Source: Thiotrichaceae bacterium UBA7357 (GTDB taxonomy: Bacteria; Pseudomonadota; Gammaproteobacteria; Eutrophobiales; Eutrophobiaceae). Taken from it: DNA of 64,000 nt. The DNA is taken from NCBI GenBank assembly GCA_002470825.1, contig DKOR01000014.1, forward strand, positions 7,021 through 71,020, given 5' to 3'. The notes beneath the pieces are model-generated. The model was not told the origin of the DNA, did no database searches, and worked only from the letters and a program-made list of their open reading frames with translations. A program made the position numbers and the translations under genes. This document shows positions 3,258 through 63,010 of this stretch, in pieces; within the stretch, counting starts at the first letter, position 1, and every line of letters starts with the position of its first letter.

Positions 3258-3658
3258 CCTATTGCTATATTAGTCACTTTAGCCTCCGAATATTTAAATA
3301 ATATACTGTTCATCAATTATCATTTCTATCATTATTCTTAAAAAAATTAGATTTTTCCGTTCTAGTAACTACGTTTTGTTCGTTGATATAATAGCAATAT
3401 ATGTGGCTAAATAGTAAGAACGAAAGTAAATGTCTCCCTTAACTAATTTAACTTTGAAATTACGGTATCAGAGAGTTTATTGTTACCATGGTACTTCACG
3501 TGAAAGAAAAAAATTCTTCTGAGCCTTAGCTTTTAAAAACATCTCAACTATTCAGAACAAAATGACTATTTCTTCATTCGACAATATTTAATAATAACGA
3601 TTAAACTAGCCTGACTTAAATCAATTTTTTATTATCTCAATAATATAAGAGTAACAGT

Positions 3659-5832: not shown

Positions 5833-6264
5833 TATTTTTAGAAAAAAACTATTGTGCTGATGAATCACTATACATGTTTGTTTATAAAAAATATTCCATA
5901 CAATCTCAAAATCAACAATAAGCTTTTTATTAACGGTCGTAAAAAACATCAACCAATGAAGAAATAGAACACATATTATTAATAAAACTAGATATCTCAC
6001 GCCCAGCAATTTATTTTTGTAGTCATGTTCTATACTGAATTAATAAAAGGGTTAGATACTTAGGGGATATATGAGCAAAGATATTGATATATAGGAATAT
6101 AATGCAACATTATCTATTTATAATGTGAAATTCTAAAAAAAAAGTAAATACAGGAATTTTTCCCGTATTATTCATGACTAACACTCTTTTTTTAATGTAA
6201 TTAATTCGATACTGTTACAATCAAATGATAACCTCAATAAGGTTCTAAAAAATGAAAGACTCTA

Positions 6265-8673: not shown

Positions 8674-8863
8674 AGATATGCCCTTAGCTTTGTTATCAAA
8701 AAAGGAGATTCTTATTTTAGGTTTGTCTTTTATTCTTATAAAGTATGATGTTTAATGTGATTTAACAACACTAAACTTTATCAATCCTTAAAAATAAAAG
8801 ATATTGAGGCTATATACGGCTCTTTATCGTATCCACAAGACTCGCCAATAAGTAGAGCTATTC

Positions 8864-10375: not shown

Positions 10376-10421
10376 GTGATATTAATTGATTAGAGATATT
10401 ATTTTATTTATAGTACTAAAA

Positions 10422-12308: not shown

Positions 12309-12418
12309 CTGTCATCTATGTTTAGTTTAATATTCTAATTAAAATATTTTTAGTTTTAGTTTTGCTTATTTAACAATAAGACTTCATTTCTAAAAACCAC
12401 AATACTTTCAAGTTTTAT

Positions 12419-14803
12419 TTAAACATCAACGCCGGCAATATATAGCCAAGTATCAATAACACTATCTGGATTTAACGAAATACTCTCAATACCTTCATCT
12501 AATAACCATTTTGCAAGATCTGGATGGTCAGATGGCCCTTGGCCACAGATACCAACATACTTCCCGGCCTTTTTACATGCCTTGATAGCACGACTTAACA
12601 TAAACTTAACGGCTTCATCACGCTCATCGAATAAATCTGCAACTAACCCAGAATCTCGATCAAGTGCTAAGGTTAATTGCGTCATGTCATTAGAACCAAT
12701 CGAAAAACCATCAAAATATTCAAGGAATTGATCAGCCAAAATCGCATTACTAGGTACTTCACACATCATAATCAACTTTAGGCCTTCTTTTCCTCTTTCT
12801 AAGCCATATTTGGCCAATAAGTCAACAACCTGCTTAGCTTGTCCTAGAGTGCGTACGAATGGAACCATAACCCAAATATTATCCAAACCCATCTGTTCGC
12901 GCGCATAAAGTAAAGCACGACATTCCAATTCAAAACACGCTTCAAACTCATCTGACAAATAGCGTGACGTGCCCCTGTAGCCAATCATCGGATTTTCTTC
13001 TTGTGGTTCGTATCGTTCACCCCCGAGTAAATTGGCATACTCGTTAGATTTAAAATCAGATAAACGTACAATAACTGGATTAGGCGCAAATGCAGCACCT
13101 AGTGTTGAGATACCCTCAACCAAATTCTGAACATAAAATTCCACTGGGCTTGCATAAGCTTTGATACATTCATCAATAGATTTTTTTATTACCTTTTCTT
13201 GATCATCGTAGTCTATTAAAGCACGTGGATGTATACCGATCTTATTATTTATAATAAACTCTAATCTCGCTAAACCAACACCAGCATTAGGAATCGATGC
13301 AAATGACATAGCCTTTCCAGGATTGCCCACATTCATCATTATTTTTAAAGGTGCAGGTGGCATATTATCTAATTCTGCTCGATTCACCTGAAAGTCCAGT
13401 TTACCTTCATAGATAAGTCCGCTTTCTCCTTCTGAACAGACCACAGTTATAACATCATCATAATTAATTTTATTAGTTGCATCACCACAGCCTACAACCG
13501 CAGGAACACCTAATTCTCGTGCAATAATTGCGGCATGACAAGTTCGTCCTCCTCGATTCGTCACTATCGCAGATGCACGTTTCATTACTGGTTCCCAATC
13601 AGGATCAGTCATCTCTGTCACTAACACATCACCCTCTTGTAGATCATCCATGTCTTTCAATTCTTGGATGACTCTTGCTTTGCCAATCCCTATCTTTTGA
13701 CCTATTGCAGCACCTCTAATAAGCAAATTTCCTTTTTCATTTAACTGATAACGTTCAATTATGTTTTTATTTTCACGACTTTGTACTGTCTCAGGTCGCG
13801 CCTGCACGATATAAATTTTATTATTATTACCATCTAAAGCCCATTCAATATCCATAGAACGACCATAATGTTTTTCTATTATTACAGCCTGTCGTGCAAG
13901 TTCTTCTAACTGTTCATCGTTTAGACAAAATATCGCAGAATCCTTAGCTAATACTTTTATGGTTTTTACCAATTCATCATTATCGGAAGAATCGTCATAT
14001 ATCATTTTAATCGCTTTACTACCTAAACTACGACTTAGTACTGATGGCCTACCCTGCGCTAAAGATTTTTTATAGACATAATATTCATCAGGATTTACTG
14101 CGCCTTGAACTATAGTTTCTCCTAAGCCATAGCTTGCTGTAATAAATACAGCATCATCAAAACCAGATTCCGTATCAAGAGTAAACATAACACCACTTAC
14201 GCCCAGATCGCTACGAACCATAAGTTGTAGACCCACTGATAAAGCTACTTCTTCATGAGCAAAGTTCTGATGCACACGATAAGCAATAGCTCTATCATTA
14301 TATAGTGATGAGAAGACCTCTTTAATTCTAAACAAGATATCGTCAATACCAGATACATTTAAAAATGTCTCTTGTTGACCTGCAAATGAAGCGTCTGGTA
14401 AATCTTCAGCGGTTGCTGATGATCTTACCGCAATAGAGCACTCGTCATCTCCATCACTCATTTCTTCATAAGCATCCTCTATGGATTTTTTTAATCGATC
14501 TTGAAATGGCGATTCGACGATCCATTGACGAATTTCTTTCCCGACCGATATCAGTTGTTTAACATCATCAACATTCAATTCTTTGAGCCTGAGTTTTATA
14601 CGCTCACGTAATTGATTATGATCAAGAAAATCCCAGAAAGCTTTGGCTGTTGTTGCGTAACCTCCAGGGACATTCACATCAGCCTCGGATAAATTACTTA
14701 TCATTTCTCCCAGTGACGCGTTTTTACCGCCTACGGTTCCCACATCTTTCATTCTTAATTCTCGTAGAGGCTGAATGTAGTCATTAGCTACCATTTTTTT
14801 CAT
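12419..14803 (-). CDS. ppsA: phosphoenolpyruvate synthase (pyruvate, water dikinase)
   Basis: 794 aa. The N-terminus [17 protein letters not shown] matches the PpsA hallmark, and a PEP-utilizing / PEP-mobile His domain architecture follows. Confidence 0.95.
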
Positions 14804-14842
14804 AAAATTCCTTTCTCAATAAATCTTTAAAATTACTTTTTT

Positions 14843-15673
14843 TTAATTATTTTTTAATAATTTTTTTTCTTTTACTATATTTACAGCAATTTCTTCAATC
14901 GATATCGCTGTCGAATCAAGAACAAATATACCTGCTTTATGCATCATGACTTCTGCTCGTTTAACTTCATGTTGACACTTTTTTAATGTGGCGTAAGGAG
15001 TATTCGGTCGTCGCTGTTGACGAACAGCACTAAGTTGATCAGCGCGTATGGTGAGACCAGCAATTTTATTGAGATGAGGCAATAAGAATTCAGGTAATTT
15101 CTCATTATCAAGATCATCATCAGTTAAAGGATAATTAGCTGCTTTCAATGAAAAATGCATCGCTAAATATAGGCAAGTCGGGGTTTTTGCAGAACGTGAT
15201 ACTCCTACTAATATAACATCAGCCTTGTCGAATAAATTTACTCTAATTCCATCATCGTTTTTAAGAGTGAAGTCGATCGCATCCATTTGTTTTTTATAAT
15301 CTTCATCACCAAATTCTTCATGTGGCTTTCCTATAGTATGTGATGACTTTATGTCTAGACTCTTTTCAAGAGGCTCTATAAATGAATTAAACAAACTGAT
15401 TACACATGCATCTGTAGTAGATATAAATTTTTGGAGGTTATCATTTACTAGTGTACTGAAAACAATCGGTTGAACACCACTTTCTTCATATTCTTGCTGA
15501 ATCTCACCTGCCACAAAAGAAGCTTCTATCTCAGTTATCACAAAAGCAAATGTTTTATCTGAAAAATCAACATCATCAAACTGTGAAAGCAAACTTTGCC
15601 CGAGTGACTCAGCTGTTTTTCCTGTTCGATCTGAAACATAAAAAACAGAACGTTTACTTTGTTTATTATTCAT
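14843..15673 (-). CDS. ppsR: PEP synthase regulatory protein (bifunctional kinase/pyrophosphorylase, DUF299)
   Basis: 276 aa with the P-loop-like ILVGVSRSAKTPTCLYLA motif typical of PSRP. It lies directly upstream of and co-directional with ppsA. Confidence 0.9.
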   Translation of the reverse strand: MNNKQSKRSVFYVSDRTGKTAESLGQSLLSQFDDVDFSDKTFAFVITEIEASFVAGEIQQEYEESGVQPIVFSTLVNDNLQKFISTTDACVISLFNSFIEPLEKSLDIKSSHTIGKPHEEFGDEDYKKQMDAIDFTLKNDDGIRVNLFDKADVILVGVSRSAKTPTCLYLAMHFSLKAANYPLTDDDLDNEKLPEFLLPHLNKIAGLTIRADQLSAVRQQRRPNTPYATLKKCQHEVKRAEVMMHKAGIFVLDSTAISIEEIAVNIVKEKKLLKNN

Positions 15674-15768
15674 TTTAAAATTTAAAAAAGCTGAGCTAGC
15701 TCACAAATACAGAAGACACCACGATTTAATAAAAAAAATAAGCTACTTGTAATCAACGCGGCAGGAAA

Positions 15769-16923
15769 TTATTTCCGTTTATCAATAGGAATAAATTTTT
15801 GATTCTTCGGACCAACATAATTTGCACTGGGTCGAATAATCTTACCATCCTCACGTTGTTCAATTACATGCGCTGCCCATCCAGATGTGCGTGCAACAAC
15901 AAATAGCGGAGTAAACATTGCTGTTGGAACATTCATTAATGAATAAGACACAGCCGAATACCAATCAAGATTAGGAAACATTTTTTTCTCCGCCCACATT
16001 ACTTTTTCAAGACGCTCAGCAATCTTATACATCTTCATGTTTTTAGCTTTAATTCCTAAACTTTTGGCTACACTTCTGATCATTTTATTACGTGGATCAC
16101 CCGTGGTATATACTGGATGCCCAAAACCAATAACAATTTCTTTACGCGATATACGTTCTTTTATATCTGCTTCCGCTTCACTAGGATTTGCATAGCGAGA
16201 CTGTATTTCAAATGCAACTTCATTAGCCCCACCATGTTTTGGCCCACGTAAAGCACCTATCGCGCCCGTTATACTGGAAAACATATCTGAACCTGTGCCA
16301 GCGATAACGCGACCAGTGAATGTTGAAGCATTATATTCATGTTCAGCATAAAGATTTAATGACGTATGCATTGCTCGAACCCATGTATCAGAAGGTTTAT
16401 TGCCATGTAGTAAATGTAGAAAGTGACCGCCGATGGAATCATCATCTGTTTCAACTTCAATACGCGTTCCATTAACTGCATAGTGATACCAATAAAGTAA
16501 CATAGAAGCAAAGCTCGCCATTAATTTATCGGCTATATCTCTTGCTCCTGCTGAATTATGATCTTCTTTTTCAGGCATTACTGCACCTAATACAGAACAA
16601 CCCGTCCGCAATACATCCATCGGATGAGCCGAAGGTGATAATTGCTCAAGAGAATTTTTCACAGCGATTGGTAAACCACGCAATGATTGTAATTTTATTT
16701 TGTAAGCATTGAGTTCAACTACCGTAGGTAATTTACCATGCACCAAAAGATAAGCAATTTCTTCAAACTCACAATTATCAGCTATATCGAGAATATCATA
16801 ACCGCGATAATGTAGATCATTACCTGTTAAACCGACTGTACATAAAGCGGTATTTCCTGCGGCCGTTCCACTTAATGCAACTGACTTTTTAGGTTTTGGT
16901 TTTTGTATTGTCTTTTTAGTCAC
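15769..16923 (-). CDS. prpC: 2-methylcitrate synthase (citrate synthase family)
   Basis: 384 aa citrate-synthase fold sequence. It overlaps methylisocitrate lyase by 4 nt (prpB-prpC order). Confidence 0.85.
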
Positions 16924-17810
16924 GGATTATCTCCTGAAAATAATTCATTTAATTTTTTTTCGTAATCATGATAAGCCAGATAATCATAAAGTTCTTCTCT
17001 GGTTTGCATTAAATCAACTACATTTTTTTGTGTGCCTTCTTCGCGTAAGCTTGAATAAACTTTTAATGCTGCAGCATTCATTGCACGAAATGCCGACAAC
17101 GGGTACAAAGCTAAACTGACATTTACTGAAGCGAGTTCTTCGATGGTAAATAAGGGTGTTGAGCCAAACTCGGTAATATTAGCAAGTACTGGTACACCGA
17201 CAGCATCGACAAACTTTTTATACATACTAAGTTCCGTCATTGCTTCGGGAAAGATCATGTCCGCACCCGCTTCAACACAGGCACATGCGCGCTCAATTGC
17301 AGCATTGAGTCCTTCAACTGATAAGGCGTCAGTTCTTGCCATAACAACGAAGTCAGAGTCGACCTTAGCATCTACAGCAGCCTTAATCCTATCAACCATC
17401 TCTACTTGTGTAACTATTGATTTATTAGGACGATGTCCACAACGTTTTTGTTGAATTTGATCCTCAATATGAACCGCTCCAGCTCCAGCTTTAATCATTG
17501 AACGTATCGTTCTTGCTATATTAAATGCTCCACCCCAACCAGTATCAATATCGACTAATACTGGTAAATTAGTTATGTCTGTAATGCGGCGAAGATCGAC
17601 TAAAACATCTTCCAAACTAGTAATTCCCAGATCAGGTATGCCACACGATCCTGCTGCGACACCTCCACCTGAGAGATACAACGCTCGATAACCAGTGGCG
17701 TCAGCTAAACGTGCATGATATGCATTTATAGCACCGACAACCTGCAATGGTTTTTCCTCTTCGACAGCAAGCCGAAACCGTGCACCTGGTGAATTAACCT
17801 TGTCGCTCAT
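16920..17810 (-). CDS. prpB: 2-methylisocitrate lyase
   Basis: 296 aa in the PEP mutase / isocitrate lyase family with PrpB-like motifs ([35 protein letters not shown]). Confidence 0.9.
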
Positions 17811-51126: not shown

Positions 51127-51840
51127 TCACTTCAGATGCCTACCGCCATCAAGGGGGAGTATTCTACCAGTAATGTATTCACTATTAAGTATATAGTCGA
51201 TTGCACTTTGAAACTCAGCACAGCCACCTTCACGTCCCATCAGACTTTTTTTTAATGTCTTCTTCTTATATTCATCATCATCTTCATGATTAAACAAAAT
51301 TAGAGAAGGTGACAGGCTATTCACTTTGACTTTAGGTGCAAACTTCGAAGAGAAAGAATAAGTGAGGTTATCTTGACCCGCTTTACTAGCGGCGTACGCT
51401 ACATGTTTCTTACTACCACATGAACTCACATAGTCACCGATATGAATTATATCTGCATGGCTATGTTGTGTGTTCATCAAAAGTGGTGCCAAGCCAAAAT
51501 TAAGTAAATACGGAGCATTAACATGCACCTGCATCATGCGCTTAATGATCTTTAATGAGGCAAGCTCAGCACTATCGCTCAGCCAGTCAGAAGCATTGTG
51601 AATAATGGCTCTGATACCACCACAGTTTCGTGTTACATTTTCAATCAATGATTCGATGTCTGCATCATTGTATAAATCACACTTTAAAAGTGTGGCGTCT
51701 TTTTTTTTAAGTTGCAACAAAGACTCTGTCTCATTACGATATGTTCCAATAACAGATATACCACGGTCGAGAAAATTATTTGCAAGATATTGGCCCAGTC
51801 GTTTTCCTACCCCAGTAATCAGAATTGGTTCGGTCGTCAT
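51127..51840 (-). CDS. folM: dihydromonapterin/dihydrofolate reductase FolM (SDR family)
   Basis: There is near-colinear similarity to E. coli FolM ([69 protein letters not shown]). The start was moved to the internal Met, giving a 4-nt overlap with folE. Confidence 0.85.
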
Positions 51841-52529
51841 GGATTCAGAAATTCGGCACGTGTATGTATATTTTCTTTGAAACAACCTCCCAATGCTGTT
51901 GTACTCGTTTGTGAATTACTATCCTGAACACCACGTGACTTAACACAGTAGTGTGTTGCTTCAAGATTTACTGCGACATTTTCTGTTTCGAGTAGGGTCT
52001 GTAACGCTATCAATATTTGTCTTGTTAGTCGTTCTTGTACTTGAGGTCGTTGCGCAAAAAAGCGAACCACACGATTGATTTTTGAAAGTCCGATTATTTT
52101 TTTATTCGGTATATAAGCGACTTTAGCAGTCCCATCTATAGTGACAAAATGGTGTTCACAGGTACTGGTCAGATCAATGTTTTTAATTTTAATCATCTCA
52201 TCCGCGCCCATCTTATTCTCAATTAATGTGATTTTAGGAAAATTACTATAATTCAAACCTGAGAAAATTTCGTGAATATACATTTTGGCTATACGATGTG
52301 GTGTCTCATTTAAACTATCATCACTTAAGTCAAGACACAGCGTTTCTATAACCTCCTTCATTAGAAATTTTATTTTTTCATATTTTTCTTCTCGAGATAA
52401 GGACGTTTCGATCATAGGAGTTTCTATCCTACTTTCAATCAAGGCATTTCTAACCATTAGAGCTTCGGGGCTTAAAGCAACATCTTCATTTTTGATAGGT
52501 GTTTTAAGGTATACTGGTGTAACGCTCAT
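51837..52529 (-). CDS. folE: GTP cyclohydrolase I
   Basis: 230 aa with the FolE active-site motifs STCEHHFV and [10 protein letters not shown]. Confidence 0.9.
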
Positions 52530-52966
52530 GATGCCCTACCCAAGAGTCTTAAACTCGATTTATTTTCAGTATTATATTCAAATGTTATTGATACTGAATC
52601 AGCAAACCTTAATGCATAAGGCTTATCTACCGTAACTCGAGCATTATTCACAGATTGATGTTGACTACATATATCAAGCACATCGGCGACAAGTTTTTCT
52701 AACAATAAAAAACTTCCTTCCTCAACATGTTCTATTACCTTTTTGGTAATATCCCTATAATTTAGAGCATCAGATATTTCATCATCTAGTACAGATTGAG
52801 TTATTGCATAGTTAATTTCTATGTTGATAACAACATCTTGTTTTTTTTCTTTTTCTTCTTGATTGAAACCAATGTAGGTGCGTAATCGAAGATTAGAAAT
52901 GTTAATTATTGCATTTTTTAGGCGCATTAAGTTTCTCAAGTGTTTTAGATATATTAAACCATACAA
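52526..52966 (-). CDS. dihydroneopterin aldolase-family protein (FolB or FolX epimerase)
   Basis: FolB-fold motifs ([26 protein letters not shown] … ALNYRDI … LLEKLVADV). It has a 4-nt overlap with folE. The N-terminus is probably MRLKNAI. Confidence 0.7.
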
Positions 52967-53146: not shown

Positions 53147-53680
53147 ATGCAAAAAATTCTTGTTTTATTCATTTTGTACTTTAGTAATGTGGGAAATATC
53201 TGGGCAGTTTGTCCAGATTACCTAAATGTTGATATGGAAGTGTTGCGTTCGAATAAAATAATTAATATTTGCGAAAACTTTGGCGATAGTCCCATGTTGA
53301 TAGTCAACACCGCAAGTCATTGTGGTTTTACGCCACAGTTTGAGGGAATTGAAAAATTATACAAGCAATATAAAGATCAAGGCCTTGTAGTACTTGGTTT
53401 TCCGAGCAATAGTTTCAAGCAAGAGGCTAAAGCAAAAGAAGAAACGGCTGAAGTCTGTTATGTCAACTACGGTGTATCATTTCAAATGTTTGCAGAAACC
53501 TTTGTACGTGGTAAAAACGCACATCCAATATTTAAAGAATTGGCGCGTCAGTCAAGTCCACCTTCATGGAATTTTAATAAATATCTGATAGATAAGAACG
53601 GTAATGTTATTGACCATTTTGGCAGCACAACTGATCCAAATTCCACTGAAATACATAGACTTATTAAAACTCTACTCTAG
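53147..53680 (+). CDS. glutathione peroxidase (with N-terminal signal-like sequence)
   Basis: 177 aa with GPx motifs (LIVNTASHCGFT, LGFPSNSF, KYLIDKNG). The first about 20 residues are hydrophobic, suggesting export. Confidence 0.85.
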   Translation: MQKILVLFILYFSNVGNIWAVCPDYLNVDMEVLRSNKIINICENFGDSPMLIVNTASHCGFTPQFEGIEKLYKQYKDQGLVVLGFPSNSFKQEAKAKEETAEVCYVNYGVSFQMFAETFVRGKNAHPIFKELARQSSPPSWNFNKYLIDKNGNVIDHFGSTTDPNSTEIHRLIKTLL

Positions 53681-53968: not shown

Positions 53969-54523
53969 CTAGTTTTTTGCAGATGAATTTTCACTATTAA
54001 AATATAAGTTCGCTGCAATAATACCAGCAACAAGTCCTGATGCGTGCCCTATCCATGAAATATGTGTTCGAACATCTAGCAAAATAAATAGAAATCCTCC
54101 GTACATAATCATCGCAACCAAACCAAGCAACATAGCTTTGATTGCTTTTGTATTATACGCATCAGTCAGTATAAATGACCAATACCCAAGGATTAATGCA
54201 CTAGCACCAGCATGATAAGCCGGTGAGCCAAATATCCAGGTTCCAATTCCAGACAACAGTATGATAATTAAGGTTGACTCCCAAAAAATAACACTACCTT
54301 TTAGCTGTACTAAAGTGCCTAGGATTAGAAATGGCATAGAGTTACTTATTAAATGCCACCAATTGTGATGTATCCAAGGTGCAGTAATGATGCCTGTTAA
54401 GCCACTAATAGATCGAGGATATATTCCGTGTTGTCCAATCACCGGAAAAAGAAAAAATTGAACAGCATGAATTATCCATAACGCAATTAACACATAAAAG
54501 GCATGTGAGATTATTCGAGACAA
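53969..54523 (-). CDS. rhomboid-family intramembrane serine protease
   Basis: 184 aa with 6 TM helices. A GxS catalytic motif (HAGASALILGYW) is followed by a later AH-x-x-G His motif (GHASGLVAGII). Confidence 0.7.
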   Translation of the reverse strand: MSRIISHAFYVLIALWIIHAVQFFLFPVIGQHGIYPRSISGLTGIITAPWIHHNWWHLISNSMPFLILGTLVQLKGSVIFWESTLIIILLSGIGTWIFGSPAYHAGASALILGYWSFILTDAYNTKAIKAMLLGLVAMIMYGGFLFILLDVRTHISWIGHASGLVAGIIAANLYFNSENSSAKN

Positions 54524-55635
54524 TTTAAAGCCTTATCCTCACTTACTTTTTGAGAATCGTTGATAAGTGTAATAATTCCAGTTCCGGAGCAAACCTCATC
54601 CGGTAATGGATTCACATTAATACCTTCTGAATTTATAAACGCCATAGGTATACCAGCATCGCCTTTAACAAACTTGCAAATAACATCTGACCAAGTGAGT
54701 TCTGTAAAATTAATATCGAGTCGAACCATATGATCATCATCATGGGTGAACATATTCTCGAGCACTTCTTCTGTGCCTGGCGCCACAATTGCGCGGACAA
54801 TAAGTTCAGGATAAGCTCTTACAGGACGAATGACGGCGATAGCCCCAGCTCTCTTTATACGAGCCCGATTAATATCTTGTGTGACTTCAGCAATTATTGT
54901 TGCTGAAGTACGTATTTCATTGATGCGACTTAGCACATCAAAAGTAAGACTATCAGATAGTGGCTCGTCAGCATCACGTGCAATGAGAATAATATGTTTT
55001 GCTCTATCAACGTTAACTGCGCGCAAGTTATCATTGCTCTCAGCAACGCCATTGTAATGTACAACACCCTTATCACAGAGGTTTGAAGGTAGCCCATTCT
55101 CAAATTTTCGTGTCAAGATCTGTATTGGCATCTCTTGCAATATAGGAGTTGCTCTGACTTGATCAACAAATTTAGTTAGATAGTTAACTGTATCATTATT
55201 AGGCGTATTGATAATAACTATGTGGTTTTTCATCTTCTTCCATCTCCATCGACCAGTGATTTTTGTATCTCTTGTGATTGTGCGATAATCGAAAAATTCT
55301 GCTGCAAGCTGTGCAACTAGTGATATGCCGATTCCATATAAGGTAATGATGGTTACAATGCGTCCTTCTGTTGTTTGAGCTGATAAGTCTCCGTAGCCAA
55401 CCGTAGTGACAGTTGTTATTGATAACCATATGGAATCTTCAAGTGATAGGTCTTCAATATAAGCTATGGCAATACTATGTAATGCAATCAAGAAAAATAA
55501 AATTAAAGCCGTCTTTCCTAATCGAATTAAAAAATCCTTTTCATTATGTCTAGTAAACTTAAGATAGTGCCTTCTCTTCCAGTATGAAGCCTTTATTAAA
55601 TTAAGAATCATCATTACTTTTATCTTTCTTGTCAT
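54511..55635 (-). CDS. potassium channel with C-terminal RCK/TrkA-N-type regulatory domain
   Basis: The canonical K+ selectivity filter TTVGYGD follows two TM helices. The C-terminal half is soluble and Rossmann-like. The start is possibly the internal MMIL. Confidence 0.8.
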   Translation of the reverse strand: MTRKIKVMMILNLIKASYWKRRHYLKFTRHNEKDFLIRLGKTALILFFLIALHSIAIAYIEDLSLEDSIWLSITTVTTVGYGDLSAQTTEGRIVTIITLYGIGISLVAQLAAEFFDYRTITRDTKITGRWRWKKMKNHIVIINTPNNDTVNYLTKFVDQVRATPILQEMPIQILTRKFENGLPSNLCDKGVVHYNGVAESNDNLRAVNVDRAKHIILIARDADEPLSDSLTFDVLSRINEIRTSATIIAEVTQDINRARIKRAGAIAVIRPVRAYPELIVRAIVAPGTEEVLENMFTHDDDHMVRLDINFTELTWSDVICKFVKGDAGIPMAFINSEGINVNPLPDEVCSGTGIITLINDSQKVSEDKALNCLE

Positions 55636-55933
55636 AGTAATGAAGATTTATTTCAGCGGTAACCCGTTTTTTTATTTCAAGCTCATTTGATTCATCAACC
55701 CCTAAACGCTTAGCGAGAATAGCTATATCTTCAGAGCTTAATGACATGGCCACACGACTACGTTGAATTTTCTTGTAGCTAAGCCCTGTTAATTTTCGAA
55801 CAAGATCGCTAGGCTTGATATTTTCTTCAGCGGCATCAACAATAATCATTTTATTAACGTCCTCCTGAAACTCAAACTGCATTTGAATTTTCTTTAATGC
55901 TTCCGTCTCATGATTCCACTTATCATTTGGCAT
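55601..55933 (-). CDS. hypothetical hydrophilic protein (operon member between the YjfK-like and K+ channel genes)
   Basis: 110 aa with charged residues and no TM helices. It overlaps both neighbours, suggesting translational coupling. Confidence 0.4.
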   Translation of the reverse strand: MPNDKWNHETEALKKIQMQFEFQEDVNKMIIVDAAEENIKPSDLVRKLTGLSYKKIQRSRVAMSLSSEDIAILAKRLGVDESNELEIKKRVTAEINLHYYDKKDKSNDDS

Positions 55934-56567
55934 TGGGCCACATCTCTAAAATCACATCAGTAGGAACTGACACTCCAAGGAAGACATCGGTTTCACCAGA
56001 GCTCCAAACTTCAACAGAAAGCGAATAGTTTTCATCCTTATTAAGCTCACAAATAAAGCCTCTAAACTCCTCGCATTTATCACTTTGCGTTGATGATGCT
56101 GTAATTTTTTTCACTATTAAGTCATCTTGATAAAAATAACCTTCGACATCTTTTTCAGTTTGAATATAAACACCTTCTTTAGTCCATCCCTCAGGAAGAA
56201 CTGTGATATCTTGTGTTTTGATCTGCGCATAATCATCATCAAAGAGTATTGAAAACTGTTCCAAATCAAATAACGACTCAACCATGGCTCTTTCAATTTT
56301 TATAGAAAAACATAGCAATGGGTCGCCATCATTATCATCCACTAAAAGATAGTATGTTTTATTTTCAGTGGAGCGTAATGTAACTTCTTTTTCTAAACCA
56401 TCATCGTATTGATAGGTACCAACGCTAATCACTTCCAAATCACTGCCTTGCAGTTCAGCAGGAAGAGATGACCTTTCTTTTAAAGTAACAAGGTCTCCAA
56501 CCTGTAATTCATCGGGTTTTGATAAGGTTCTCGTTTCAGTATTTTTTTTTCTATTAAAAAAAGCCAT
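55923..56567 (-). CDS. YjfK-like protein (DUF2491 suspected)
   Basis: 214 aa. It follows a PspA-like gene exactly as yjfK follows yjfJ in E. coli. The family name is from memory. Confidence 0.45.
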   Translation of the reverse strand: MAFFNRKKNTETRTLSKPDELQVGDLVTLKERSSLPAELQGSDLEVISVGTYQYDDGLEKEVTLRSTENKTYYLLVDDNDGDPLLCFSIKIERAMVESLFDLEQFSILFDDDYAQIKTQDITVLPEGWTKEGVYIQTEKDVEGYFYQDDLIVKKITASSTQSDKCEEFRGFICELNKDENYSLSVEVWSSGETDVFLGVSVPTDVILEMWPNAK

Positions 56568-56619
56568 CTACTTGAACTCCTTAAGGAAGTATTTTTAATA
56601 CTCCTTTAGTTATGCGACA

Positions 56620-57312
56620 TTATGATTTGTTTTTATTTTTTAATCTTTCAAGGATATCATTGGCACTCGTTTTTTTACCACCAATACCCTCTTCTGATAA
56701 TTTCTTATCCAGGTCACTAGAAGATTCTTCCTCCTCCATCCAATCACCTGCTTTTTGATTATCCTTCCACTCTTGCTGCTTCTTTTTAGCACGCGCTAAT
56801 GAATCTGCAACGCGATTGCCGCTTGATTTAGTCGACGCAAAGTTCTTATTAATACTTGCGGTCGTTTTTTGTAGCTGTTCAACTGTTTTAATTTTTTCAA
56901 GCTCTCGCTTACCTTTTTCAAGATTTGAACTGCGTGTTTTAATCATTTTATTAAGCTGTAGAACCTCTTTTGCCAACGCAGTATGCTCTGTGAAAAGAAT
57001 GTCTTTTTCTGACTCTAAATCAGCTATTTTTTCAGCAACCTGTATCGCAAGATCTTCTTTACCAGCGTCAAGTGCTTCAACCGTTTTTGCTTCATAGTCA
57101 GTAATATCTGTGGTTAAGGAATCAATTTTTCGTTTAAGTCCAATCTCAGTACCTTTCAACTGAGTTAGACTTTGTTTTGCCTTATTTATAGCGTTCGAGT
57201 CATCTCGAATATCTTGCTCGAGAATACGAATTAAGTTCGCATCAACGACAGATTCACCAACTTCACTAACACCGCCTTTTATCGCTTTAAATAAATCTTT
57301 TAATATACTCAT
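56620..57312 (-). CDS. PspA/IM30 (Vipp1/ESCRT-III-like) family protein, YjfJ-like
   Basis: 230 aa with a long coiled-coil and the characteristic PspA N-terminus (LKDLFKAIKGGVSEVGESVVDANLIRILEQDIRD … KAKQSLTQLKG). Confidence 0.8.
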   Translation of the reverse strand: MSILKDLFKAIKGGVSEVGESVVDANLIRILEQDIRDDSNAINKAKQSLTQLKGTEIGLKRKIDSLTTDITDYEAKTVEALDAGKEDLAIQVAEKIADLESEKDILFTEHTALAKEVLQLNKMIKTRSSNLEKGKRELEKIKTVEQLQKTTASINKNFASTKSSGNRVADSLARAKKKQQEWKDNQKAGDWMEEEESSSDLDKKLSEEGIGGKKTSANDILERLKNKNKS

Positions 57313-57327
57313 GTGTAAAATTACCTC

Positions 57328-57735
57328 TTATTTAAGTAAGGGTGAGATTGTTTCAAGAACATCAATCGTATTCTCAGCTTGAACTTCAAGCTCATGTGAA
57401 ATGTTCTCAATAGTCGTGTTGACAGACATTGCGCCAAATAGAATGTAGTTATTGTCCTGAAGGCCAACTGAGCTTAATGGCACGGCTGGGCTAACCCTCA
57501 ATAACAATGAATTTAACTCGTTAACTTTTTCTTTAGGAACTTCATCTGCACTAAACAATGGTGTGACAGTAAGAATCTGTTTCTCAGTCATCACTACATG
57601 AATTGAGAACTCATCATTATTAGAGCAAGTCACCTCCAATATTTCATCATCAACGAAAACAGCTTCAAATGTAGTACCTTCGTCAGTGCTCATTTCATTA
57701 AGAATGAGTGATAGTTCTTGTAAATTATTCTGCAT
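57328..57735 (-). CDS. YjfI-like protein (DUF2170 suspected)
   Basis: The 135 aa acidic protein lies immediately upstream of the PspA-like gene, as yjfI does in E. coli. Confidence 0.45.
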   Translation of the reverse strand: MQNNLQELSLILNEMSTDEGTTFEAVFVDDEILEVTCSNNDEFSIHVVMTEKQILTVTPLFSADEVPKEKVNELNSLLLRVSPAVPLSSVGLQDNNYILFGAMSVNTTIENISHELEVQAENTIDVLETISPLLK

Positions 57736-57771
57736 TTTAGTTCTCCATTGTTAAGACGATCTTTTGTCCGT

Positions 57772-57792
57772 TTAATATTATATTGCCATATT
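57772..57792. promoter_or_regulatory. 21-bp perfect palindrome TATTGCCATA-T-TATGGCAATA in the promoter region of the yjfI/pspA-like operon; candidate operator
   Basis: The two arms are exact reverse complements, read directly from the sequence. The palindrome is 37-57 nt upstream of the YjfI-like start codon. Confidence 0.35.
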
Positions 57793-57848
57793 ATGGCAAT
57801 AATCAAACTATATTTTCTATATAGTACTTTTATGTCTTCTGAATTAAG

Positions 57849-59561
57849 CTAATCAACTAAAAAAGCGCCGTTTTGTAATGACCATGCATTGTGGTGATAA
57901 CGGTATAATATGTGGCTTCCTAGCTCATTGACGCGAATATCCTTAGCTGAATTGTAGAAATCCTGTGAAAACGTGAATGCCGTTTTTATTTGTTCTATCG
58001 AGATCCAAGTGTTTTCAATAGGCAGTTTGTTTATATTATTGATTCTCGTTCTTGCATCAATGCCATGAACTGTACCAATGGTCCATCCCCACTCACCAAA
58101 GGTCGGTACGTTCGCATGATACTGGTCTGTAATGAAGCCTGCATCAGCTAGTGTCCTACCTATAGAAATGAATGCTTTTTTAGCGTGATAAGGTGATGTC
58201 GACTGAATAGCGATTGCTCCATCACCATTCATGAGTGCTTTTAGCCGCGTATAAAAATAGTTTGAATACAACTTATTTAAGTCAGGATGGCTTGGATCAG
58301 GAAGATCAACGATAATGGCATCAAAAAGTTGTTGATTACTTATCATTTTTTCGACTTCTAAGAATGCATCTGCGGCGACCGTTTTTACTCTAGGGTCGAG
58401 GAAAGCGCTCCCATTCAACTTAAGCAATATCTCATTAACCTTTTTAGGCGCATTCTGGTCTTTTCCTGAAAATAGTTCGAGCATTGAAGGGTCAAGATCC
58501 ACTAACGTAACGGAGTTTGGATTCCATTTTAGAATTTCTCTAACCGCCATTCCGTCACCGCCGCCGATTACAAGAACGTTATCCTGTCTCGCGGATGAAA
58601 GAAGTGCTGGGTGAGTCAAGTAATTGTGATAAATAATTTCATCATTGCTTGAGAACTGGAGTCGACCATTAATGTACAGACTGGTGATTGGTTGAATCCC
58701 CTTTCCTACTTTACGTTCTGTTAGTGTCAAGTGCTGATAGGGTGTTATTTTCGTATAAACAACCTTATCTTTAAAGAATGAGGAACCCATTCCTTCAGTG
58801 ATGGTTGTGCTAAAAAACCCTATCGTTATTAACAGTATAGTTAATCCGACATGCGCTAAGAATAATAGTTTTGGCCTATTGAGGTACTTTTGATAACGAA
58901 ACAGAAAAATAAAGCCAATAAATATATTGACTGACGCAGTCCCTACTGCTGAAACAATAATAGGCTGTTTTAAACAAAAAATTACCCATATAGCCGCGCC
59001 CACACCCGCACCAATATAATCTGCACCATAAATAGTGCCTGTATTATGTGTTAAATGTCTTTCATAAATAATTTCACGAATTCGTGCAATCAGTGGTATT
59101 TCCATTCCAATCATGACTCCAAGAAAGAAGCCACAGATGAAAGGTGTGTAGTACACAAAACGCTGTAATAGCTGAATTATGCCTCCATCTGTGGTGATGC
59201 TGCTGTGAAGGCCATAGATTTCTTGTAATTGCTGAGGTAGCGAGTAACTCAAGCTAATAATTCCTGCAACAATTAATATTGATGTCGCACCAAAAAATCC
59301 AATTAATAATTCAAGTACAGTAAACCCAGTAAACGGATCTTTTATGAGTTTTGCTGCAAACGCGCCAATGCCCATGGAAACGATCATTATTCCAATCATG
59401 GAATATATGGCGCTATCTACAGCACCAATGACACGTCCGGCATAGTGAGACAATAGGTATTCATAAATAAGTCCACATGCCGCTAATACTGACATAATTC
59501 CGATAAGCGTTATGTCATGCGATAGCTTTAAGTCTCTTTTATTGCCTAATAAAGCATTCAT
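57849..59561 (-). CDS. spermidine synthase-family aminopropyltransferase fused to an N-terminal polytopic membrane domain
   Basis: The N-terminal about 230 aa has multiple TM helices. The C-terminal half has SpeE motifs (NVLVIGGGDGMAVREI, VDLDP, the AIIVDLPDP region). Confidence 0.8.
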   Translation of the reverse strand: MNALLGNKRDLKLSHDITLIGIMSVLAACGLIYEYLLSHYAGRVIGAVDSAIYSMIGIMIVSMGIGAFAAKLIKDPFTGFTVLELLIGFFGATSILIVAGIISLSYSLPQQLQEIYGLHSSITTDGGIIQLLQRFVYYTPFICGFFLGVMIGMEIPLIARIREIIYERHLTHNTGTIYGADYIGAGVGAAIWVIFCLKQPIIVSAVGTASVNIFIGFIFLFRYQKYLNRPKLLFLAHVGLTILLITIGFFSTTITEGMGSSFFKDKVVYTKITPYQHLTLTERKVGKGIQPITSLYINGRLQFSSNDEIIYHNYLTHPALLSSARQDNVLVIGGGDGMAVREILKWNPNSVTLVDLDPSMLELFSGKDQNAPKKVNEILLKLNGSAFLDPRVKTVAADAFLEVEKMISNQQLFDAIIVDLPDPSHPDLNKLYSNYFYTRLKALMNGDGAIAIQSTSPYHAKKAFISIGRTLADAGFITDQYHANVPTFGEWGWTIGTVHGIDARTRINNINKLPIENTWISIEQIKTAFTFSQDFYNSAKDIRVNELGSHILYRYHHNAWSLQNGAFLVD

Positions 59562-59583
59562 CTAATCCATTCCACTGGATTCC

Positions 59584-60489
59584 TTAAATAATTGAATCGA
59601 GCATTTCTACTAATGGATTCAATATAATTGCCATTGATATAAAAATTTGAGCTTCAATGAAGGCCACACCAATATTTTTTTGATTATCAACTTCTTCGAT
59701 AACATTGATACCTATGAGAATAAAACGCCTTGCTATCGCTGCAAGAATAGTGATGAAAATAACAATTGCGATGGAAACCAAAAGCCATATTCCTGCTGAT
59801 ATCATTAGAGTGTCAGGCATATAACTCACTAGATGAGAACTTGCGCTTACGCCAAGTGCCGCAGCTATGATATGTCCGGCGTAACGTATAGATAGTGCTG
59901 GATTTCCTACTTTAATTGCATCCTGAAGACGCTCGCCATTGTGTCGTCGCATATAAATTTGTGAACGCATTCTTGTTATCAGTAACAGAATGAACTGAGA
60001 TGCAAAAAAGATAAAAACAACTGACAGTAAACCATCGGCCGACTCAGTTTCAATCCACTTTATAGATGTTGATATAATAATGCCTAAAGACAAATAATTT
60101 GCTGCCTGGACTATGCCTGCTGAAATATTTTCGCTTGAAATTTCATCTTTCAATGAAAATCGATTAAAGATAACGAAATCATTAATCAATTTGCCTGTCC
60201 ATAACAAGACGATACCTGCGAATGCGTATATCAAGACATTGGTGGCTTCAGTCAAAAGATTGTTACTCGGTGTACCGTCAACTGCTGCGGCAATGATCAT
60301 TGCTAACGCTAGTGCACCACCAGCAAAAGCAACTCCATAAGCGAAGTTATCTTTCTTTGATAGCTCGTCACTTGTATTGACCCCTTCTATGAGACCTTTG
60401 ATCCATCGAAAAGCGCTGATTGCTATTACTGATAAAACGAGATCGAGACATATCACGCTGACGACCCATATTAAGTTGTTATCTAACAT
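59584..60489 (-). CDS. tandem DUF350-type membrane protein (YjfL-like, duplicated)
   Basis: 301 aa made of two similar halves of short TM helices, each with A/G-rich segments (GVAFAGGALALAMII, GHIIAAALGVSAS). The family name is from memory. Confidence 0.5.
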   Translation of the reverse strand: MLDNNLIWVVSVICLDLVLSVIAISAFRWIKGLIEGVNTSDELSKKDNFAYGVAFAGGALALAMIIAAAVDGTPSNNLLTEATNVLIYAFAGIVLLWTGKLINDFVIFNRFSLKDEISSENISAGIVQAANYLSLGIIISTSIKWIETESADGLLSVVFIFFASQFILLLITRMRSQIYMRRHNGERLQDAIKVGNPALSIRYAGHIIAAALGVSASSHLVSYMPDTLMISAGIWLLVSIAIVIFITILAAIARRFILIGINVIEEVDNQKNIGVAFIEAQIFISMAIILNPLVEMLDSII

Positions 60490-60503
60490 AATTTTCTCCT
60501 GAA

Positions 60504-61478
60504 TTATTTGCCGCGACGACCGCTACGAGAAGTTCTTGACGATGAGTTTCGAGTCGTACTTTGAGAGCTACTCTTTTTATATGCGCTACTAAATTTAGCT
60601 TTTGTGGGCCTTGGTTTTGCTGACGTAGAAGAACCGCCTATTCTCTTTTTAGCGTAAGGACTCGTAAACTTTTTTCCTGATTTTTGGAATTTATTTTTTA
60701 CTGTAGCTTGTGTTGCCCGCTGGTTTTTAAATTGAGAGGGTGAAGTATAATGACTTCTACCATAATCATTATAATAACTGTAGCCACGGTTATTTGACCA
60801 AGAAGAATAATAGATCGGTCGTCCAAAATTACTGAACATCGAATACATCCCATACCATGCCCAAAAAGAGGTGCCGTCATTTCTTCTTTGCCAGTTTCCG
60901 TAATTTGGATTACCTACTAACTGGTTTCCAGTTTCAGAATCAGCAATTCCATTTGCTCTATCACTCGCTTCTTTACTTAATGCTTCTATACGAGGTAGTT
61001 TGCCATTTGATATGTCGGCGATGACATTGATTGGATCTGTGAGCATCATATTGTAGATTGCTGGGTTTGCTGCATCAGATATTAACGCCAACTCTTGAGC
61101 GACATTTTCTGTCGCCAATTTTCCGTTTGCCGGTGCTGACTTAGATAGCGCAAGCGATGTTTTTAATCTATCAGCAAGACCTAAATAAATAGGTCCTCTC
61201 GAGGTTGAATCGAGAGCTAACGCGTTAATAAGTTCAATGAATTCAGTCTCACTATTTTTTACAGTATCGGCATACATTTTTAATATACCTGTGTTTTTAA
61301 CCAGTCCTTTATCGATATGATCTTTTAGTTGAGCAACTGAACGCTGCGCGTTCGTTATGTAGACCTCCAGTTCCTTTGTTAGAAGTTCTTCCTGAGAAGT
61401 GCATCCAGATGTTGATATTATTAATATAATTAACAAGCATAATATGTTAAATTTTTTTTTCATAATAACTCCAGTCAT
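60504..61478 (-). CDS. lipoprotein with YjfM-like (DUF1190-type) C-terminal Ser/Arg/Lys-rich region
   Basis: It has a signal peptide with the lipobox ISTSGC. The segment GTSFWAWYGMYSMFSNFGRP resembles the E. coli YjfM motif (SFWMPLMAGYMMGRLMGG). The low-complexity basic tail is S/T/R/K-rich. Confidence 0.5.
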   Translation of the reverse strand: MTGVIMKKKFNILCLLIILIISTSGCTSQEELLTKELEVYITNAQRSVAQLKDHIDKGLVKNTGILKMYADTVKNSETEFIELINALALDSTSRGPIYLGLADRLKTSLALSKSAPANGKLATENVAQELALISDAANPAIYNMMLTDPINVIADISNGKLPRIEALSKEASDRANGIADSETGNQLVGNPNYGNWQRRNDGTSFWAWYGMYSMFSNFGRPIYYSSWSNNRGYSYYNDYGRSHYTSPSQFKNQRATQATVKNKFQKSGKKFTSPYAKKRIGGSSTSAKPRPTKAKFSSAYKKSSSQSTTRNSSSRTSRSGRRGK

Positions 61479-61490
61479 GTTACAGTTTCC

Positions 61491-61883
61491 TTATTTTTTA
61501 TTCTTTACACCATAGTTAAAGCTTCCAGCATCACGACTTATCATTTGTATCCTAAAACTATCAGGTTTCATATTCTTAGTGATAACGTGCGCTGCTTTTT
61601 CAGTTTCACAATCACCACACATAAAAACATCGAATGCAGCATAGTTCTTTTCTGGCCAAGTGTGCACTGTAATATGAGATTCAGTGAGTACTAATACACC
61701 TGTTATGCCACATCCTTCTCCGAAATGGTGAAAGTTGGATGACAGCACAGTAGCGTTTGCTGCATGGGCTGCTGAATGAAGTAATTTGAGCATTTCCTGC
61801 TCATCAAAATGTGACACTGCCCCTTTACAATCGATGATTGCGTGCTTACCAGGAGCATACATATTATTTCTTATAATCGACAT
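61491..61883 (-). CDS. speD: S-adenosylmethionine decarboxylase proenzyme, small class 1A (SpeH/PA4773-like)
   Basis: The 130 aa protein has the self-cleavage site LTESH (Glu-Ser) and a conserved HTWPE motif (HITVHTWPEKNYAAFDVFMCGD). Confidence 0.8.
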   Translation of the reverse strand: MSIIRNNMYAPGKHAIIDCKGAVSHFDEQEMLKLLHSAAHAANATVLSSNFHHFGEGCGITGVLVLTESHITVHTWPEKNYAAFDVFMCGDCETEKAAHVITKNMKPDSFRIQMISRDAGSFNYGVKNKK

Positions 61884-61969
61884 ATTATGTTTATATTAAA
61901 TATATCAGTTTGCATATTAAAAGATCATAATTAAACTAAATCGATAATAATTTTAAAATATATGACTGT

Positions 61970-62233
61970 ATGAAAAGTAAAAAAACTATCGCGCAAGGAC
62001 TCGTCAACCGAGAAAAAAAAGTGAGCCGATACCTGAAACTAAGAAAAAAACTTCGCGTATTATCATTTGAGGAAATCTCCAAACGATTAAAATTAATAGA
62101 CATTATTCAAAGCCGAGAGAACCTAAGTAATAAGTTCCAGACGGGCAGAATAAGCGCCTCATTGTTCTTTTCTATCCTTGAGGTCATGAATGAAGAATCC
62201 GTTGACCTAAATGATTTAAATAAATCAATATAG
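61970..62233 (+). CDS. small Xre/Cro-like HTH protein (tentative), divergent from the speD-led operon
   Basis: 87 aa with the pattern LRKKLRVLSFEEISKRLKL…SRENLSNKFQTGRISASLFFSILEVM, consistent with a Cro/C1-type HTH. There is no clear Shine-Dalgarno sequence. Confidence 0.35.
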   Translation: MKSKKTIAQGLVNREKKVSRYLKLRKKLRVLSFEEISKRLKLIDIIQSRENLSNKFQTGRISASLFFSILEVMNEESVDLNDLNKSI

Positions 62234-62409: not shown

Positions 62410-62485
62410 TGGTGCCGGAAAGAGGATTCGAACCTCCGACCTACTATTTACGAAACAGTTGCTCTACCAACTGAGCTATTCCGGC
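62410..62485 (-). tRNA. tRNA-Thr (anticodon CGU)
   Basis: The reverse complement folds as a canonical 76-nt cloverleaf: GCCGGAA acceptor, GCUC/GAGC D-stem, ACUGU-UUCGUAA-AUAGU anticodon arm with CGU at positions 34-36, GGAGG-UUCGAAU-CCUCU T-arm, and an encoded CCA. Confidence 0.9.
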
Positions 62486-62508: not shown

Positions 62509-62949
62509 TTACATCGAATTTTTTACTCGAACAACCACATCAATACCCGATTGCACTGTGTTTTCAGGTAATGATGATTTTGGGTTTAAGCTCATTTCGT
62601 CAATTTCAAAATCAGATAGTTCACCCGTATCTTCATTGTAAAAATGGTGATGATGCGAGGTATTAGAATCATAAAAAATCTTTGTTGGATCAATACTAAC
62701 TTCTCGAATCAATCCTTTCTCAACAAAAAGATTCAATGTGTTATAAACAGTTGCCTTTGAGACATGCACACCACTTTCATTAACAAATGCGAGGACTTTG
62801 TCTGCTGACAAATGTTGAGGTTTATTCAACATTACTTTAGCAATCTCATTTCTCTGAAACGTAGGATTGATATCGCATTTGAGTAATTTCACCTTTATGT
62901 GATTTTCGCTGTCCTTCATAAAATCCTGTTTGTTGATCTTTTCACTCAT
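62509..62949 (-). CDS. Fur-family transcriptional regulator
   Basis: It has an N-terminal winged helix and a Fur-like DNA-binding region (RNEIAKVMLNKPQHLSADKVLAFV…SKATVYNTLNLFVEKGLI). A His-rich HHHH motif is present and the C-terminus lacks Cys. The probable start is MSEKINK. Confidence 0.75.
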   Translation of the reverse strand: MSEKINKQDFMKDSENHIKVKLLKCDINPTFQRNEIAKVMLNKPQHLSADKVLAFVNESGVHVSKATVYNTLNLFVEKGLIREVSIDPTKIFYDSNTSHHHHFYNEDTGELSDFEIDEMSLNPKSSLPENTVQSGIDVVVRVKNSM

Positions 62950-63010
62950 AAGAAAATTATAATAGAGGCTAATAGCAAAGTGGAAATGATACAACTCAGA
63001 TTATCATTTA

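Follow-up and report, generated by a model that had tools for sequence, protein, structure and literature searches.

The 64-kb window analysed here, a 64,000-nucleotide stretch of contig DKOR01000014.1 from Thiotrichaceae bacterium UBA7357, contains a ten-gene locus that we interpret as an extended member of the SO_3765-type class of envelope operons, in which a CesT/Tir–PspA dyad is combined with a seven-transmembrane (7TM) aminopropyltransferase. Taken together with the mechanism proposed below, we give this reading, which derives from sequence comparison, a probability of roughly 0.6. Three operon groups built on the CesT/Tir(DUF2170)–PspA dyad have been described (Ravi et al. 2024, PMC11237479). 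The second of these, typified by SO_3765 of S. oneidensis, is laid out as LipoSIG+Ctha_1186+Low-comp → YjfL-TM → TM+Spermine_synth → CesT_Tir-DUF2170 → PspA → DUF4178 → ribbon-helix-helix (RHH) (PMC11237479). Its content and order are those of genes 2-8 in the window, with genes 7 and 8 assigned by sub-threshold matches and position. The locus differs from this type in having an S-adenosylmethionine decarboxylase (AdoMetDC) gene at its 5' end and genes for a K+ channel and a rhomboid protease at its 3' end. The original prediction for this stretch had presented the arrangement as undescribed as a unit, which does not stand, since Ravi et al. 2024 give genes 2-8 in exact order and the core is already described in silico by comparative genomics (PMC11237479).

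Positions are those of the window, and genes 1-10 are counted along the minus strand from 61883 to 53969, the strand on which all features described below lie unless stated otherwise. The ten open reading frames (ORFs) are co-directional in the ORF listing of the window; from gene 1 onward the first seven are spaced 12, 14, 22, 113, 15 and 52 nt apart, and the last three junctions overlap by 11, 35 and 13 nt. Apart from the 113-nt gap between genes 4 and 5, all neighbours are therefore separated by no more than 52 nt or overlap. The listing and the sequence agree with the predicted layout of ten co-directional genes with small gaps or overlaps and one promoter-like 113-nt gap carrying a 21-bp palindrome.

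Three features place the locus in the SO_3765 type: a protein joining a multi-transmembrane (multi-TM) domain to Spermine_synth, a DUF2170 gene followed by a PspA gene, and an 8TM DUF350 protein plus a low-complexity lipoprotein encoded upstream of the synthase. The first is the product of gene 4 (57849..59561), a predicted membrane-anchored aminopropyltransferase with an N-terminal multi-TM domain of ~250 aa and a SpeE domain (PF01564, E 3.6e-32). It scores 570 bits against NF002956 (PRK03612, membrane SpeE; cut-off 472), the one SpeE model that it passes, and falls far under the cut-offs of NF002435, NF002010 and TIGR00417. A hydropathy scan gives nine partly overlapping peaks across residues 19-250, in keeping with the 7TM domain that Ravi et al. 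describe, and the motifs GGGDG and DLPDP are kept in 47/48 and 48/48 orthologues, respectively. At E≤1e-10, a search for homologues of this TM-SpeE protein returned 4449 proteins.

Upstream of the synthase, gene 3 (59584..60489) encodes a protein of ~8 TM segments with two DUF350 (YjfL-like) domains (PF03994, E 5.5e-31, in two stretches), for which the hydropathy scan shows seven partly overlapping hydrophobic peaks. Its similarity to E. coli YjfL is low (BLAST E 0.12), and the DUF350 domain is the sole part common to both. Gene 2 (60504..61478) encodes a lipoprotein with a lipobox cysteine (Cys26), a W/Y/G-rich core and a basic, Ser-rich low-complexity tail. The Pfam search gave no family for this protein. 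In the alignment of its family Cys26 is invariant and the core is conserved, and we assign gene 2 to the Ctha_1186 type by its position and by its agreement with the description 'LipoSIG+Ctha_1186+Low-comp' (PMC11237479).

The dyad itself consists of gene 5 (57328..57735), encoding a YjfI/BacA-like DUF2170 protein (PF09938, E 1.4e-23), which directly precedes the PspA_IM30 gene 6 with 15 nt between them. Gene 6 (56620..57312) encodes a YjfJ-like PspA/IM30 protein of the ESCRT-III-type membrane-remodelling family (PF04012, E 2.7e-32). Each shares 31% identity with its E. coli counterpart, gene 5 with YjfI (E 1e-11) and gene 6 with YjfJ across its full length (E 3e-22). The DUF2170 fold is that of the CesT/Tir chaperones (PMC11237479, PMC10948618). 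In P. aeruginosa, a DUF2170 protein (BacA) is encoded first in the biofilm-associated bacABCDEF operon (PA3732-PA3729…), followed by the PspA homologue BacB; the crystal structure of BacA has a CesT-like chaperone fold, and loss of BacA raises the other Bac proteins (PMC10948618). Gene 5 scores 46 bits against the BacA equivalog model, whose cut-off is 300. Next in order is gene 7 (55923..56567), which probably encodes a soluble, two-lobed β-rich protein distantly related to DUF4178. The window protein has a weak, sub-threshold DUF4178 match in Pfam (E 0.0087), as do 6/17 of its relatives (best E 0.0012), and its AlphaFold2 (AF2) model is two-lobed and all-β with a mean predicted local distance difference test score (pLDDT) of 78.8.

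At the 5' end, gene 1 (61491..61883) encodes a small pyruvoyl proenzyme (PF02675, E 3e-30) that scores 111.4 bits against TIGR03330 (cut-off 75.65). It has the Glu-Ser self-processing site LTESHITVHTWPE and the catalytic Cys motif DVFMCG, and the ESH…HTWPE processing site is kept in 35/38 and DVFMCG in 37/38 orthologues. By hidden Markov model (HMM) score, processing site and catalytic Cys, the predicted product is a class 1b AdoMetDC.

At the 3' end, gene 9 (54511..55635) is predicted to encode a 2-TM K+ channel (Ion_trans_2, E 4.6e-13) with a TTVGYGD selectivity filter and a cytoplasmic RCK domain (Slo-like_RCK, 28.7 bits against a cut-off of 24, E 1.2e-6). The hydropathy profile has two TM peaks, and the filter is kept in 49/50 orthologues. 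Homologues start ~8 residues downstream of the listed ATG at 55635, and the true start is probably Met8 or Met9 (about 55611-55614), which would reduce the overlap with gene 8 from 35 to about 11-14 nt. Identity as an equivalog of E. coli Kch was ruled out (34 bits, cut-off 425). Gene 10 (53969..54523) encodes a putative minimal rhomboid intramembrane serine protease (PF01694, E 1.7e-17). Its catalytic dyad (Ser108 and His160) and the TM2 residues His57 and Asn61 are invariant in an alignment of 16 sequences, and the rhomboid GxS motif is kept in 50/51 orthologues. A rhombosortase was considered and ruled out (26.6 bits, cut-off 84). On these features the two proteins are assigned to the RCK-gated 2TM K+ channels and the rhomboids, and the predicted catalytic motifs are shown to be intact in all four enzymes and channel proteins. 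HMM searches upheld the AdoMetDC, DUF350 (two copies), membrane SpeE, DUF2170, PspA, RCK K+ channel and rhomboid calls of the original prediction.

To place the arrangement in a wider context, we compared 22 core-anchored loci. A genome scan seeded with the gene 7 family yielded 16 loci, all in metagenome-assembled genomes (MAGs) of Methyloprofundus, Methylococcaceae, Sedimenticola, Polarisedimenticolaceae, unclassified Gammaproteobacteria, one Pseudomonadales and two Desulfobacterota, and six further contexts were obtained via gene 4 homologues. To determine locus content, the ten proteins of the window were compared by BLASTP with the ORFs of all 22 loci. All ten genes are present in order in 13 of them, at 38-64% identity; these belong to MAGs of Methyloprofundus, Sedimenticola, Polarisedimenticolaceae and several unclassified Gammaproteobacteria, and to the complete Ca. 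Vondammii chromosome. Another two, truncated at the 5' end, are consistent with the full form. The remainder carry genes 1-8 only (four loci: L014, L015, L020 and L022), genes 1-9 without the rhomboid (one, L016), genes 1-7 (one, L023), or genes 2-8 plus the rhomboid without the channel and without the AdoMetDC gene (one, Amphritea L018). In this last MAG, of an Amphritea sp. (6043-12496), the rhomboid gene directly follows the RHH-like gene. No flanking genes of the 22 loci are conserved beyond the synteny found among close relatives. The constant unit is an eight-gene core, and the channel and rhomboid are accessory genes, each able to occur without the other. The arrangement recurs in many gammaproteobacterial MAGs and is not unique to this genome.

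Whether the rhomboid is dedicated to the operon was examined in a metagenome scan seeded with the rhomboid alignment, which returned 34 rhomboid loci at 37-62% identity. The K+ channel gene adjoins the rhomboid gene in 33/33 of the metagenomic loci with upstream sequence, and the operon core follows as far as each contig reaches. Within the reach of the search pattern, this rhomboid subfamily is found only in this operon context. One metagenome contig (Ga0114931_10029124, 3096-5202; L042) has a swapped order, gene 8 → 10 → 9, so that the accessory genes are rearranged yet kept together. Both 3' genes had been described as unexpected members of the locus, and their recurrence across genome and metagenome loci bears out their membership and shows that they are not chance neighbours.

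The 113-nt gap contains a σ70-like internal promoter, P2 (57777..57806), with the hexamers TTGATT and TATAAT separated by 18 nt, which at 10/12 matches is the best promoter match of the region. A perfect 21-bp palindrome of the form 10+1+10 (TATTGCCATA-A-TATGGCAATA; O2, 57781-57801) occupies the 18-nt P2 spacer and extends into the -10 hexamer. Its 19-nt core is unique in the window, where 0.03 chance matches are expected. A second operator-like site, O1 (AACATAATATGTC, 61879..61891), overlaps the ATG of gene 1 and includes an 11-bp perfect palindrome at 61880-61890. In the orthologous gene 4-5 gaps a TTGAC box is immediately followed by a TGCCATAWTATGGCA-type palindrome, and Sedimenticola-type and Desulfobacterota loci have two copies ~31 nt apart. 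A census of the core NNCATAWTATGNN (CATAWTATG) in the window and 56 loci (738 kb) found it in the gene 4-5 gap in 45/48 informative loci, where its distance to the start of gene 5 is nearly constant (-62 to -79 for the promoter-embedded copy, -33 to -47 for the proximal copy), and at the gene 1 start or closely upstream of it in 18/37 informative loci; only seven matches lie elsewhere in the 738 kb. The palindrome is missing from three of the 48 loci, two of which (L023 and L054) also have neither gene 8 nor a gene 4-5 gap, genes 4 and 5 abutting or overlapping there. A σ54 promoter, as in the bac operon, was rejected for this gap because the TGGCA of the palindrome has no correctly spaced TTGC behind it.

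Gene 8 (55601..55933), to which the original prediction gave no name, encodes a 110-aa RHH-like putative DNA-binding protein and is the candidate repressor for these sites. Its family is small, with 80 representatives among 1.84 billion proteins. The N-terminal half of its relatives gives sub-threshold RHH matches, NikA-like in seven members (best E 7.7e-6) and otherwise to FitA-like_RHH, RHH_1 and RHH_10. Foldseek searches with the AF2 model returned non-significant matches only, headed by the RHH regulator AvtR, with TraY and single-chain Arc lower in the list. AvtR, F-plasmid TraY and single-chain Arc are single-chain double-RHH proteins. A tandem RHH architecture for gene 8 was rejected, as hhalign of its two halves shows no internal repeat. 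Neither of the PDB matches to the family profile, the Vps4 MIT domain (E 0.21) and NikA (E 0.42), is significant, and the first of these falls in the C-terminal half of the protein. PspA is ESCRT-III-like, and the tails of ESCRT-III proteins are bound by MIT domains. The likeness may be accidental, or it may point to control of the repressor through PspA.

Ravi et al. label the gene in this place RHH (PMC11237479), and among putative DNA-binding proteins only the gene 8 product accompanies the palindrome. We infer that its product is an autorepressor that would occupy the P2 spacer and so repress genes 5-10, itself included, and that it probably represses the gene 1 promoter too. Control at both sites would tie the two halves of the operon into one regulon.

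Several observations weigh against this regulatory scheme and, more broadly, against the assignment of the locus. The gene 8 protein of the window has no significant Pfam or PDB match, so that its RHH link comes from the sub-threshold matches of relatives and from the literature, and its AF2 model is mediocre (pLDDT 70). The co-absence of gene 8 and the palindrome is seen in two loci only, and L057 has gene 8 together with only a degenerate palindrome. P2 would also let the two operon halves be expressed separately. For gene 7, structure comparison produced no informative match. The locus samples were seeded from close relatives, so the frequencies reported above are not unbiased, and some of the metagenomic loci probably duplicate MAG loci.

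The palindrome might instead not be an operator of gene 8 at all: it could act in the RNA as a hairpin or a terminator-like element, or it could be bound by a regulator whose gene lies elsewhere. Overlap with the start codon, seen for the copy next to gene 1 in the window and in L001-type loci, could affect translation and would suit the first version. However, a 10+1+10 palindrome leaves a 1-nt loop, so any RNA stem would be short and weak at best, and the palindrome sits between the conserved TTGAC box and the -10 hexamer. In a separate check, an Rfam scan of the window for RNA families matched a tRNA only, and a riboswitch or other RNA reading of the locus was dropped. The second version has a candidate in an 87-aa ORF on the plus strand (61970-62233), divergent from gene 1 and 86 nt away from it, which encodes a DUF6471 protein (Pfam E 2.7e-10, above the cut-off). 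Homologues, also divergent, lie upstream of the AdoMetDC gene in L002 (3025-3330) and L022 (246-572). Together with the window these make up 3/23 loci checked for DUF6471, far from the 45/48 in which the palindrome is found, and no other putative DNA-binding protein shares the distribution of the palindrome as gene 8 does. We regard a non-operator or foreign-regulator origin of the palindrome as unlikely; the divergent DUF6471 protein may be an occasional additional regulator of the operon.

The promoter in the gene 4-5 gap could also mark a boundary between two adjacent and independent units, namely genes 1-4 for spermidine biosynthesis and genes 5-10 as a PspA stress operon driven by a separate promoter, without functional coupling. 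Such a division would suit both the quality of the σ70-like match preceding gene 5 and the Amphritea locus, where the AdoMetDC gene is missing. It is difficult to reconcile, however, with genes 2-8 being contiguous and co-linear in all sufficiently long loci from Gammaproteobacteria to Desulfobacterota while the flanks vary, with the same palindrome core standing at the gene 1 start and at P2 in 18 loci, or with the disappearance of the gap in two loci without gene 8. We consider two uncoupled units improbable.

A similarly low probability applies to the interpretation favoured by the original prediction, in which the locus is a variant of E. coli yjfIJKLMC with AdoMetDC and SpeE replacing YjfC and making surface spermidine in the manner of PA4773-PA4774. 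The yjf operons of E. coli and Alteromonas form the third group of Ravi et al., characterised by DUF2491, DUF1190 and a glutathionylspermidine (GSP)-synthetase-like ligase, to which Alteromonas adds an Ion_trans_2+TrkA channel (PMC11237479). The similarities of genes 5 and 6 to YjfI and YjfJ, the DUF350 proteins of both clusters and the K+ channel that the Alteromonas operon shares with this locus all speak for a relationship. The resemblance does not extend further: neither DUF2491, DUF1190 nor the YjfC/ATP-grasp ligase has a match among the ten window proteins. Gene 7, called YjfK/DUF2491, has no BLAST match to MG1655 YjfK and an hhalign probability of 0.2%, so that the proposed yjfI-yjfJ-yjfK order holds for two of its three genes, 5 and 6, and fails for gene 7. 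Gene 2, called YjfM/DUF1190, has no Pfam match and an hhalign probability of 0.8%, with the lipobox alone aligning. In addition, gene 4 belongs with NF002956 and falls far under the cut-offs of the other SpeE models, and Ravi et al. keep the two operon groups separate (PMC11237479). Membership of the E. coli yjf type is, on these comparisons, largely refuted; the view of the locus as a yjf relative with YjfC exchanged conflated two groups, the locus belonging to a different class, the SO_3765 type.

The accompanying claim of a coupling between polyamines and the envelope fared better in part. The association of decarboxylated S-adenosylmethionine and aminopropyl chemistry with YjfI–PspA is strongly conserved, whereas 'polyamine synthesis' is not established. 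In the context of the third group, Ravi et al. cite Li et al. 2019 (Biochem J 476:2579) for AdoMetDC gene linkages and paraphrase that study as 'aminopropylation of other substrates' (PMC11237479). This wording suggests an acceptor other than putrescine, which argues against surface spermidine as the product.

In the Ca. Vondammii sp. HM_W22 chromosome (L019), several transposase genes or fragments flank the ten-gene operon on both sides (2582-5199 and 14475-17380), which suggests that the operon can move as a block there. These transposases and the differing flanks among genomes could be taken to indicate a mobile anti-phage defence or toxin-like island around the channel and protease, yet PADLOC yields generic methyltransferase-fold and coiled-coil matches only, the GC content of the locus matches that of its flanks, and the gene content is metabolic and envelope-related in a class documented as a Psp variant (PMC11237479), so that this last alternative is very improbable.

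For the SO_3765-type operon that we favour, we propose the following mechanism. The AdoMetDC of gene 1 would supply decarboxylated S-adenosylmethionine, and at the inner membrane gene 4 would move the aminopropyl group onto an amine acceptor, possibly not putrescine. On the periplasmic side, the 8-TM DUF350 protein and the lipoprotein may serve to handle the product or to sense it. YjfI, PspA and the DUF4178-like protein would together form a cytoplasmic, membrane-proximal stabilisation or repair module. Within it, PspA is predicted to be an ESCRT-III-like membrane stabiliser and YjfI (gene 5) a CesT-like chaperone or regulator of PspA, a role suggested by the crystal structure of P. aeruginosa BacA and its regulatory phenotype. 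The RCK-gated K+ channel would tune K+ flux or membrane potential, and the rhomboid would cut one of the system's membrane components, for control or quality control. Since the operon offers only one single-pass candidate, the signal peptide of the lipoprotein, the rhomboid substrate is more likely to be a multi-pass partner (the product of gene 3, 4 or 9), by analogy alone with YqgP/MgtE of B. subtilis.

Carried further, the locus might be a self-contained envelope-modification and repair machine, in which the membrane aminopropyltransferase acts on a non-polyamine substrate (such as a lipid head-group, the lipoprotein or an exported amine), the PspA module, ligand-gated K+ channel and rhomboid form one stress circuit, the rhomboid substrate is encoded in the operon, and the RHH repressor is freed by partner switching with PspA. 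The faint, non-significant likeness of the gene 8 C-terminal half to the Vps4 MIT domain would fit such switching. We consider this full version unlikely and offer it as a speculation.

Outside the operon, just upstream of it, lie a tRNA-Thr(CGT) (62410-62485, minus strand) and a gene for a Fur-family regulator (PF01475, E 6e-21; 62509-62994, minus strand). A glutathione peroxidase gene (53147-53680, plus strand) is convergent with the rhomboid end of the locus. Beyond it, three overlapping minus-strand ORFs (51127-52966) have translations resembling a short-chain dehydrogenase, GTP cyclohydrolase I and a dihydroneopterin-aldolase-like protein and, judged from the translations alone, would form a pterin/folate cluster.

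A rhomboid subfamily tied to one operon narrows the search for bacterial rhomboid substrates to a few co-encoded membrane proteins, and the co-encoded RCK K+ channel connects the system to ion or potential homeostasis. A defined operator of 15-21 bp with a candidate repressor would make reporter screening for inducing conditions easy. Carriers include sulfur-oxidising symbionts (Ca. Vondammii by its locus, Thiodiazotropha by protein matches only), Sedimenticola, the methanotroph Methyloprofundus and Desulfobacterota.

Compared with known systems, the locus resembles the classical pspF–pspABCDE operon in pairing a PspA/IM30 effector with a locus-encoded transcription regulator. Unlike classical Psp it has no PspF (the σ54 activator), PspB or PspC, and its regulation would instead involve σ70 and an RHH repressor. 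With bacABCDEF it shares the order of a DUF2170 gene followed by a PspA homologue; that operon differs in having no aminopropyltransferase and a proposed σ54 promoter. The study of Li et al. 2019 reportedly found thousands of class 1b AdoMetDC genes in genomes with a fusion of an MFS domain to a SpdSyn-like domain, clustered with DUF350. The carriers of this fusion are said to be without spermidine, the fusion is said not to complement a spermidine-synthase deletion, and that work is not known to describe a PspA, channel or rhomboid extension. Class 1b AdoMetDC, the membrane-fused aminopropyltransferase and DUF350 of those clusters correspond to genes 1, 4 and 3 here. The DUF2170–PspA dyad, a DUF350 protein, a lipoprotein and a polyamine-related enzyme are common to the locus and to the E. 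coli yjfIJKLMC/Alteromonas type, which has DUF2491, DUF1190 and the GSP-synthetase-like ATP-grasp ligase where the locus has DUF4178-like, Ctha_1186-type, AdoMetDC/SpeE and RHH components.

The SO_3765 type remains the closest relative in content and order, and the operator and promoter architecture reported here is not described for it (PMC11237479). The word 'rhomboid' is absent from the text and supplement of that study (PMC11237479), and our literature searches found no paper combining rhomboid, PspA, K+ channel and operon, and nothing on SO_3762-SO_3767. Relative to the literature searched, the new elements of the locus are the dedicated rhomboid, the presence of a K+ channel in this operon class, and a conserved pair of operator sites for which an RHH protein is the candidate repressor.

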